This document shows, piece by piece, positions 58,407 through 60,313 of a stretch of DNA of 64,000 nucleotides (position 1 is the first letter of the stretch; each line of letters starts with the position of its first letter). The position numbers were made by a program, and so were the translations under genes. The stretch comes from Escherichia coli. Lineage in GTDB: Bacteria > Pseudomonadota > Gammaproteobacteria > Enterobacterales > Enterobacteriaceae. The DNA lies in NCBI RefSeq assembly GCF_003334405.1, contig NZ_QOWM01000014.1, one strand, 5' to 3'. The notes below the pieces were generated by a model that was not told the origin of the DNA, ran no database searches, and worked only from the letters and a program-made list of their open reading frames with translations.

Positions 58407-58670
58407 TCAGGCGCGGATTTGTTGTGATGTGGTTGTGCTCTGGCAGATGGCAACGTGTGCGACGTCCACCAGTTTATTTAACTGACTAAACAGTAAGTCG
58501 ACCGACCGTGGGCTGGCAACGGTCAATTCGATATTTATATTTTGTGCATCGCTGGCGGCGGCCATATTCATTGAGCAGACGTGGAAACCACGATGACGCA
58601 CCACGCGTAAAACACGTTCTAAGGTTTCTGGATTGAAGCGAGCCGATACATTGACCTGATGTTGCATCAT
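58407..58670 (-). CDS. ilvM: acetolactate synthase II small subunit
   Basis: 87-aa [32 protein letters not shown]...; recognised IlvM; 4-bp overlap with ilvG. Confidence 0.9.
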
Positions 58671-60313
58671 GATAATTTCTCCAACATTTCTGAATTACTG
58701 GCGCCAGGCGGCACCAGCGGCCAGACGTTCTCAAGTTCGTCGATTGAGACATGAAGCAGGTATGGCCCATCACTGTTCAGCATGGTGTCGAGTGCCGCTT
58801 CAACCTGGTCTTTCCGGGTGATGTGTTGGCCATGGATGCCGAAGGCGCTGGCTAACATGAGGAAATCGGGGTTATCAGTAAGGGTGGTTTCGCTGTATCG
58901 TTCCTGAAAAAACAGTTGCTGCCATTGTCGAACCATCCCTAACCGTTGGTTATCGAGTAAGACGATTTTCAACGGTAACTGCTTGCGTTTTACGGTGCCC
59001 AGCTCTTGCACATTCATCATGAAAGAGCCGTCACCGGAGATACAGACAACGGTATCGTTCGGTCGCGCGACTTGTGCGCCAACCGCCGCCGGTAAACCAA
59101 AACCCATGGTACCTAAACCGCTGGAGGTGATGAAATTTTCCGGGCGAGTGTGGGCGATGTGCTGCGCAGCCCACATCTGGTGCTGCCCCACATCTGTGGT
59201 CACGACGCAATCCGCAGGTTTACGATCCGACAGTTGTTTTAACAACAACGGCGCGTAGATAGCGTCACCGGGATGGTCGTAACGCCAGGAATGTTCATCA
59301 CGCAGCTGCGCGCAGTGTTGCTGCCAGTCATTGATATTTAACGGCTGCTGTAATGCTGGTAACAGAGCATTTAAATCACCTTGTAATGCCACATGTGCCT
59401 GACGCAGCTTGTTCATTTCTGCCGGGTCGATATCCATATGGATAACACTGGCGTGTGGCGCGAAGGTGTTCAGTTTGCCGGTCACCCGGTCATCAAAACG
59501 TGCGCCCACGGCGATCAGCAGGTCACACTCCTGCACCGCGAAGTTTGCCGCTTTGGTGCCGTGCATCCCCAGCATGCCCAGATAGTACGGATAATCTGCT
59601 TCTACTGCGCCCAGCCCTTTCAGCGTACAGGTGGCAGGCATTTTTGTGGCAGCGAGAAATTCACGCAAAGCCGGAACTGCCTGCGCCATACCCACGCCAC
59701 CGCCAACGTACAGCATCGGTTTTTGCGCTTTTGCCAGCATCTGGCGCGCTTGCTCAACTTCGGCATGTGGGAAAGTCACTTCGTTTTCAACGGTGGTGAA
59801 CCACGGTTCCAGGTCACCGCTGGCTAACTGGATATCTTTTGGGATATCGACCAGAACCGGACCAGGACGACCTGAGCAGGCAACGTCGAATGCTTCAGCC
59901 ATGATGCGCGGCAACTCTTCCAGCGACTGCACCAGAAAGCTGTGCTTGGTACAGGCTAACGACAATCCCAGGACATCCACTTCCTGAAATGCGTCAGTGC
60001 CGATAAACGGTGCGGACACTTGACCGGTGATGGCAACAACAGGGATGGAATCTAACAGTGCGTCCGCAAGCCCGGTTATCAGGTTGGTTGCGCCCGGACC
60101 AGACGTGGCGATACATACGCCAGTTTTGCCGGTAGCACGAGCATAACCGATAGCCGCCATTGCCGCACCCTGCTCATGTCGGCATAGCAAGTGCTCCACG
60201 CCGCCGTCATACAATGCATCGTAAACCGGCATAATTGCGCCACCCGGATAACCGAAAACGGTGTTCACACCCTGTGCCCGCAACGCATGTACCACCCACT
60301 GTGCGCCATTCAT
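58667..60313 (-). CDS. ilvG: acetolactate synthase II large subunit, intact reading frame
   Basis: Uninterrupted 548-aa [37 protein letters not shown]... with a TPP-binding region ([14 protein letters not shown]). Confidence 0.92.

Follow-up and report, generated by a model that had tools for sequence, protein, structure and literature searches.

An intact ilvG allele in Escherichia coli DNA nearly identical to that of K-12, with a predicted valine-insensitive acetohydroxy-acid synthase II

The DNA analysed here, a stretch of 64,000 nucleotides from Escherichia coli that we refer to as the window, carries an intact ilvG that differs from the K-12 pseudogene by two base pairs. We put at about 0.95 the probability that this is the normal, ancestral allele of non-K-12 E. 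coli and that, together with ilvM, it should encode a valine-insensitive acetohydroxy-acid synthase II (AHAS II). Textbooks give an intact ilvG as the wild type, and the lesion of K-12 has been on record since 1981. The allele is an ordinary, already known one, and as such it is unremarkable. Our analysis adds the precise location of the indel, the near-identity of the window to K-12 and its identity to strain ML35, and the observation that the natural junction is unlike the laboratory ilvG+ alleles with which we compared it.

The first-pass annotation had described ilvG as a single uninterrupted ORF of 548 codons that overlaps ilvM by 4 bp and lacks the K-12 frameshift. All three points hold. 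The ORF list gives the same ORF, at 58667–60313, and places it on the minus strand, which the annotation had not specified. The overlap is an ATGA at 58667–58670 (TCAT on the plus strand), in which the ATG of ilvM shares 4 bp with the TGA of ilvG. Finally, an alignment of the gene and an alignment of the whole window both show an AT that is missing from K-12. The features of the operon, and the single-nucleotide differences from MG1655 that are discussed below, are listed in Table 1.

Table 1. Features of the ilv operon in the window, and single-nucleotide differences between the window and MG1655.
Feature	Position	Strand	Description	Basis
ilvG	58667..60313	minus	AHAS II (acetolactate/acetohydroxy-acid synthase II) catalytic (large) subunit; intact, ATG to TGA, 548 codons	ORF list
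ilvM	58407..58670	minus	AHAS II small subunit, 87 aa	ORF list; NCBIfam NF008362, 133.9 bits (cut-off 68)
ilvX	60316..60366	minus	16-codon small ORF, ending 2 nt before the ilvG ATG	annotated ilvX in MG1655 and ML35, homologous position
ilvL	60453..60551	minus	leader peptide, 32 codons, Ile/Val/Leu-rich, translation MTALLRVISLVVISVVVIIIPPCGAALGRGKA	annotated ilvL
ilv leader attenuator terminator	60397..60430	minus	GC-rich hairpin GACCCCCGCACCGAAAGGUCCGGGGG followed by U8	RNA fold
ilvE	57458-58387	minus		annotation of identical ML35 sequence
ilvD	55543-57393	minus		annotation of identical ML35 sequence
ilvA	53996-55540	minus		annotation of identical ML35 sequence
SNP	49591		rep K202E (K-12 to window)	
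SNP	39980		wecB E253, synonymous	
SNP	32281		wecF R356G	
SNP	28508		intergenic, upstream of argX	
SNP	24134		hemY A382, synonymous	
SNP	21315		hemD S99, synonymous	

The predicted IlvG protein of 548 residues matches NF006524, the NCBIfam equivalog “acetolactate synthase 2 catalytic subunit”, with 1073.9 bits, where the curated cut-off is 738; the match spans residues 1–547 of the protein and positions 1–547 of the 548 in the profile. An ORF of 548 codons with a full-length equivalog match is far more than chance. The three-domain architecture of thiamine diphosphate (ThDP) enzymes (N/Pyr, central and C/PP) is complete, with Pfam matches to TPP_enzyme_N (PF02776) at residues 1–115, TPP_enzyme_M (PF00205) at residues 186–321 and TPP_enzyme_C (PF02775) at residues 374–522, all with E ≤ 1e-41. 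In ThDP enzymes, GDG-X(24-27)-N is the ThDP-Mg binding motif, and a conserved glutamate of the N domain activates the cofactor. Reading the IlvG sequence, we found a GDG-X24-N(Q) motif at residues 427–456 and a glutamate at position 47, which we take to be the ThDP-Mg motif and the catalytic, cofactor-activating residue, respectively.

Comparisons with other proteins point to the same enzyme. At least 1000 contigs carry a record of the identical 548-residue protein, named “acetolactate synthase 2 catalytic subunit”, and the intact ilvG of the ML35 sequence, which is identical to the window, is annotated as WP_001012607.1. E. coli IlvG itself is absent from the solved-structure chains among our matches; the nearest by sequence is 6lpi_A, the E. 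coli AHAS I large subunit IlvB (E = 6e-162). IlvB and the catalytic subunits of plant and yeast AHAS align with the window IlvG from end to end and belong to a common ThDP/FAD-dependent fold family, but they are isozymes other than the AHAS II of the window. The 90%-identity protein cluster that holds IlvG has a 1041-residue CusA/CzcA efflux pump from Bacteroides as its representative, with several other members of 1041 residues. These proteins seem to have entered through an artefact of the table and to say nothing about the window itself.

The difference between the window and the K-12 pseudogene is confined to one dinucleotide. We aligned the window gene with ilvG of MG1655 (b4488; ilvG'_1/ilvG'_2), the pairwise comparison proposed in the first-pass annotation, and the sole difference is an AT at 59336–59337 that is absent from K-12. 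On the minus strand, this dinucleotide is nucleotides 977–978 of the gene, inside AAATATCAA, where it keeps the reading frame P-L-N-I-N-D-W. In the pairwise alignment with an MG1655-derivative pseudogene annotated as “frameshifted”, the remaining 1645 nt of ilvG have zero substitutions, and alignment of the whole window with NC_000913.3 gives the same single ilvG difference. Inserting AT after nucleotide 976 of the K-12 gene yields the window ilvG exactly. In the K-12 frame, translation runs P-L-N-Q-TGA and stops prematurely after codon 327, before any part of the C-terminal ThDP-binding domain (Pfam residues 374–522, with the GDG...N motif at 427–456). Hence, K-12 IlvG ends after residue 327 and lacks TPP_enzyme_C, whereas the window IlvG extends to 548 residues. 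The junction in K-12 reads CCGTTAAATCAATGACTGG and that in the window reads CCGTTAAATATCAATGACTGG; the window does not carry a pseudogene of the K-12 type. The site is a two-unit AT repeat: the window has ATAT, at 59334–59337, where K-12 has a single AT, and loss of one AT unit by slippage is a plausible origin for the K-12 allele.

The rest of the operon is shared with K-12. The order ilvL-ilvX-ilvG-ilvM-ilvE-ilvD-ilvA is intact in the window and colinear with that of K-12. In the alignment with NC_000913.3, ilvL, the attenuator, ilvX, ilvM, ilvE, ilvD and ilvA show no base differences, and the ilv promoter has, by this alignment, the same sequence as that of K-12. The ilvM product, which matches the NCBIfam family “acetolactate synthase 2 small subunit” (NF008362; cut-off 68 bits), is annotated as WP_000983255.1 in both K-12 and ML35. 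Since the stop codon of ilvG and the start codon of ilvM overlap in the ATGA, translational coupling of the two genes is likely. RNA folding of positions 60385–60560 on the minus strand gave a minimum free energy of -63.8 kcal/mol (z = -4.23), with a hairpin and a U-run at the 3ʹ end. A consensus terminator scan of 60250–60900 did not flag the minus-strand attenuator, although the RNA fold shows it. The positions of ilvE, ilvD and ilvA were carried over from ML35 (locus coordinate + 20000 = window coordinate). For ilvE, the mechanically called ORF (57458–58453, minus strand) begins at an upstream TTG and encodes 331 residues, whereas the start annotated in K-12 and ML35 is an internal ATG (58387) that gives 309 residues.

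How closely is the source related to K-12? Over its 64 kb, the window shares 99.95% identity with MG1655, and it is colinear with positions 3946873–4010846 of that genome, in reverse orientation. There are eight differences in total: the ilvG AT, a 24-bp repeat in hemX and six SNPs, two of which change an amino acid, three of which are synonymous and one of which is intergenic. The hemX difference (22923–22946, plus strand) consists of four extra 6-bp tandem repeats relative to MG1655 (CCTGCA on the plus strand of the window, GGTGCA on the plus strand of K-12). It is in frame, adding 24 bp (8 codons), and ML35 hemX is correspondingly 1206 nt long and MG1655 hemX 1182 nt. All eight differences lie within 21315–59337, and the flanks, of 21 kb and 4.7 kb, are perfectly identical to K-12. 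By its sequence, the source stands very near K-12 and does not belong to a distant lineage. The first-pass annotation had concluded that the source is “not MG1655/W3110-like at this locus”. This is correct for the 2 bp only, since the rest of the gene, and of positions 49592..64000, matches MG1655 base for base.

The window is also 100% identical, over all 64 kb, to E. coli ML35 (NZ_CP025747.1, positions 4,790,313–4,854,312), which has a non-K-12 genome of 4.92 Mb; this identity was pieced together from positions 1–25000 and 20001–64000 of the window. ML35 thus shows no differences from the window, and its ilvG is annotated as intact. ML35 is a likely source of the window, but strains other than ML35 may equal its sequence too. 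Isolates of human, livestock, food and wildlife origin match long stretches of the window at 100% identity. At 50411–50859 (plus strand) lies a gene for a PemK/MazF-family toxin, the yifN of K-12. It carries the annotation of a frameshifted pseudogene in ML35 and MG1655 alike; hence, unlike the ilvG lesion, this pseudogene is common to both strains. The intact ilvG marks the source as something other than a standard K-12 strain, despite 99.95% identity to MG1655 over 64 kb.

The distribution of the two junctions among 5,426 complete E. coli genomes is strongly skewed. We searched these genomes with a 48-mer centred on the K-12 junction, for which megablast seeding is possible only on the deletion allele, and found the exact K-12 junction in 340. 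All of the 59 exact matches that were listed are in genomes of K-12 size (4.5–4.76 Mb), and most are named K-12 laboratory strains. They include MG1655, W3110, DH10B, DH1, BW25113, JM109, XL1-Blue, MC4100, EPI300 and O16:H48 isolates, and a few of the 59 are labelled with a human, dog or mouse gut host. By comparison, a 50-mer across the window junction was matched in at least 4,637 of the 5,426 genomes, with 100% identity in 1,425, and about 94% of sequenced E. coli have the intact form of ilvG. Some 446 genomes were hit by neither query. We presume that these have SNPs near the site that block the 28-nt seed, or a disrupted gene such as that in NZ_CP068680.1. In that non-K-12 genome (NCCP12480), only 57% of an ilvL-ilvG-ilvM query was matched, and a remnant annotated as “thiamine pyrophosphate-binding protein” is followed directly by ilvA. 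This suggests an independent deletion from part of ilvG through ilvD.

The IlvG proteins of Escherichia albertii and Shigella that fall in the same protein cluster have L-N-I-N-D-W (LNINDWQQ) at the site. Their agreement with the window, together with the population frequency, argues that the intact form is ancestral and the norm, and that the K-12 allele is the derived exception. Natural E. coli of other lineages differ from the window ilvG by ordinary SNPs (96–99% identity). We considered whether the 99.95% identity of the window to K-12 also places the 2-bp loss very recently and specifically in the K-12 lineage; we regard this as a tentative suggestion that is probably not correct.

An alternative explanation for an intact ilvG in DNA so similar to that of K-12 is that the source descends from a K-12 laboratory strain and that its gene was repaired, whether by valine-resistant reversion, by oligonucleotide recombineering or by P1 transduction of a wild ilv+ region. 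The 99.95% identity to MG1655, and an ilvG that amounts to K-12 plus AT, are what such a strain would show. Furthermore, a transduced patch could yield eight differences confined to 21315–59337 between perfectly identical flanks. Nonetheless, we consider this origin very unlikely. Against it stand the six SNPs and the 24-bp hemX difference elsewhere in the window, as well as the 100% identity shared with ML35, whose 4.92-Mb genome is not of the K-12 type, and, over long stretches, with isolates from animals, food and humans. P1 transduction of an ilv+ patch into K-12 is not the most economical account of the 64 kb.

The junctions of known ilvG+ derivatives of K-12 also argue against a repaired gene. 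MG1655 revertants that became valine-resistant spontaneously have lost either the T or the G from the premature TGA (PMC8605374). When we modelled these 1-bp deletions from the sequence, they gave proteins of 547 residues with N-Q-D-W or N-Q-Y-W at the site. Specific ilvG revertant alleles are not described in PMC6483228. Three K-12-sized “FELIX” genomes (including NZ_CP148116.1, FELIX_MS508, and NZ_CP148133.1) have an intact ilvG with a CAAT[AT]GA junction (AATCAATATGATTGGCAACAGCATTGC) that encodes N-Q-Y-D-W. Their ilvG has four clustered synonymous changes in addition to this junction, and it looks as though the K-12 frameshift had been repaired deliberately, by recombineering. The “QY” junction was rejected as a second natural allele, since it occurs in only three genomes, all of K-12 size, and is accompanied by those clustered changes. 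The revertant and engineered alleles share the reading frame and the C-terminal 220 residues with the window ilvG, and they confer valine resistance (PMC8605374; bioRxiv 10.1101/410001). However, their junctions read N-Q-D-W, N-Q-Y-W or N-Q-Y-D-W, and the N-I-N-D-W of the window matches none of those compared. On the SNPs and the hemX difference, the identity to ML35 and the differing junctions, we reject a K-12 revertant or engineered ilvG+ strain as the source. The natural, ancestral allele is our preferred reading, and it identifies the true ancestral repair of the K-12 frameshift: restoration of AT in AAATATCAA to give N-I-N-D-W.

What are the expected consequences of the natural, intact allele? 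AHAS I and AHAS III are inhibited by valine and AHAS II is not (PMC8605374). K-12 is unable to make AHAS II, and valine therefore starves it of isoleucine (PMC8605374; also PMC6483228 and bioRxiv 10.1101/410001). Restoration of the ilvG frame alone allows MG1655 to grow at 1 mg/ml valine (PMC8605374). Since the operon in the window is otherwise identical to that of K-12, in which repair of the ilvG frame is sufficient, we strongly infer a functional, valine-insensitive AHAS II, in support of the first-pass annotation, and we predict valine-resistant growth. B strains, which share an intact ilvG with the window, have raised ilvGMEDA expression and grow on valine dipeptides, and their valine resistance has been reported (PMC3446290).

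We propose that the intact ilvG and a coupled ilvM would produce AHAS II, an isozyme free of feedback inhibition by valine, and that with this isozyme the source should grow in minimal medium containing valine. A second predicted effect concerns the downstream genes. PMC8605374, which cites earlier work, and also PMC6483228 and bioRxiv 10.1101/410001 describe the ilvG frameshift as polar on ilvEDA. In the window, ribosomes would traverse the whole of ilvG, and ilvEDA should escape the transcriptional polarity caused by the K-12 frameshift. The unusual allele is that of K-12, where a derived loss of 2 bp from a short ATAT stretch creates a TGA after codon 327.

It could be argued that an intact ORF alone is no proof of activity, and that AHAS II is inactive or unexpressed in the source because of a missense change or a regulatory defect. 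We consider this even less likely than a repaired K-12 strain. Nothing in the window sequence speaks against AHAS II function in the ORF, the domains, the operon or the leader that we inspected. The exact 548-residue protein is recorded on at least 1000 contigs, its equivalog score is far above the cut-off, and Glu47 and the ThDP motif are present. Moreover, the regulatory region, ilvM and all residues of IlvG outside 327–328 are as in K-12, where frame repair alone gives valine resistance. We give a negligible probability to the idea that the additional AT arose through faulty sequencing or assembly of a dinucleotide repeat and that the K-12 pseudogene is the true sequence. The site is indeed a short ATAT run, but errors do not typically concentrate at repeats of only two units. 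The junction recurs in 4637 or more complete genomes that are independent of one another, and in 1425 of these the 50-mer is identical; the window also has further non-K-12 differences.

For the organism, the natural, intact ilvG predicts valine-resistant growth and unattenuated expression of ilvEDA. The allele may also bear on K-12 strains in which ilvG has been repaired. The natural residues I327-N328 belong to the linker that joins the central domain to the C-terminal one, and the natural junction is unlike any of the laboratory ilvG+ alleles compared; hence, repaired K-12 strains may not make truly wild-type AHAS II, a suggestion that we regard as speculative and, on balance, doubtful. If it were true, an ML35-like sequence, with an operon otherwise identical to that of K-12, would be a clean isogenic reference for the effects of the linker on activity, assembly with IlvM and expression.
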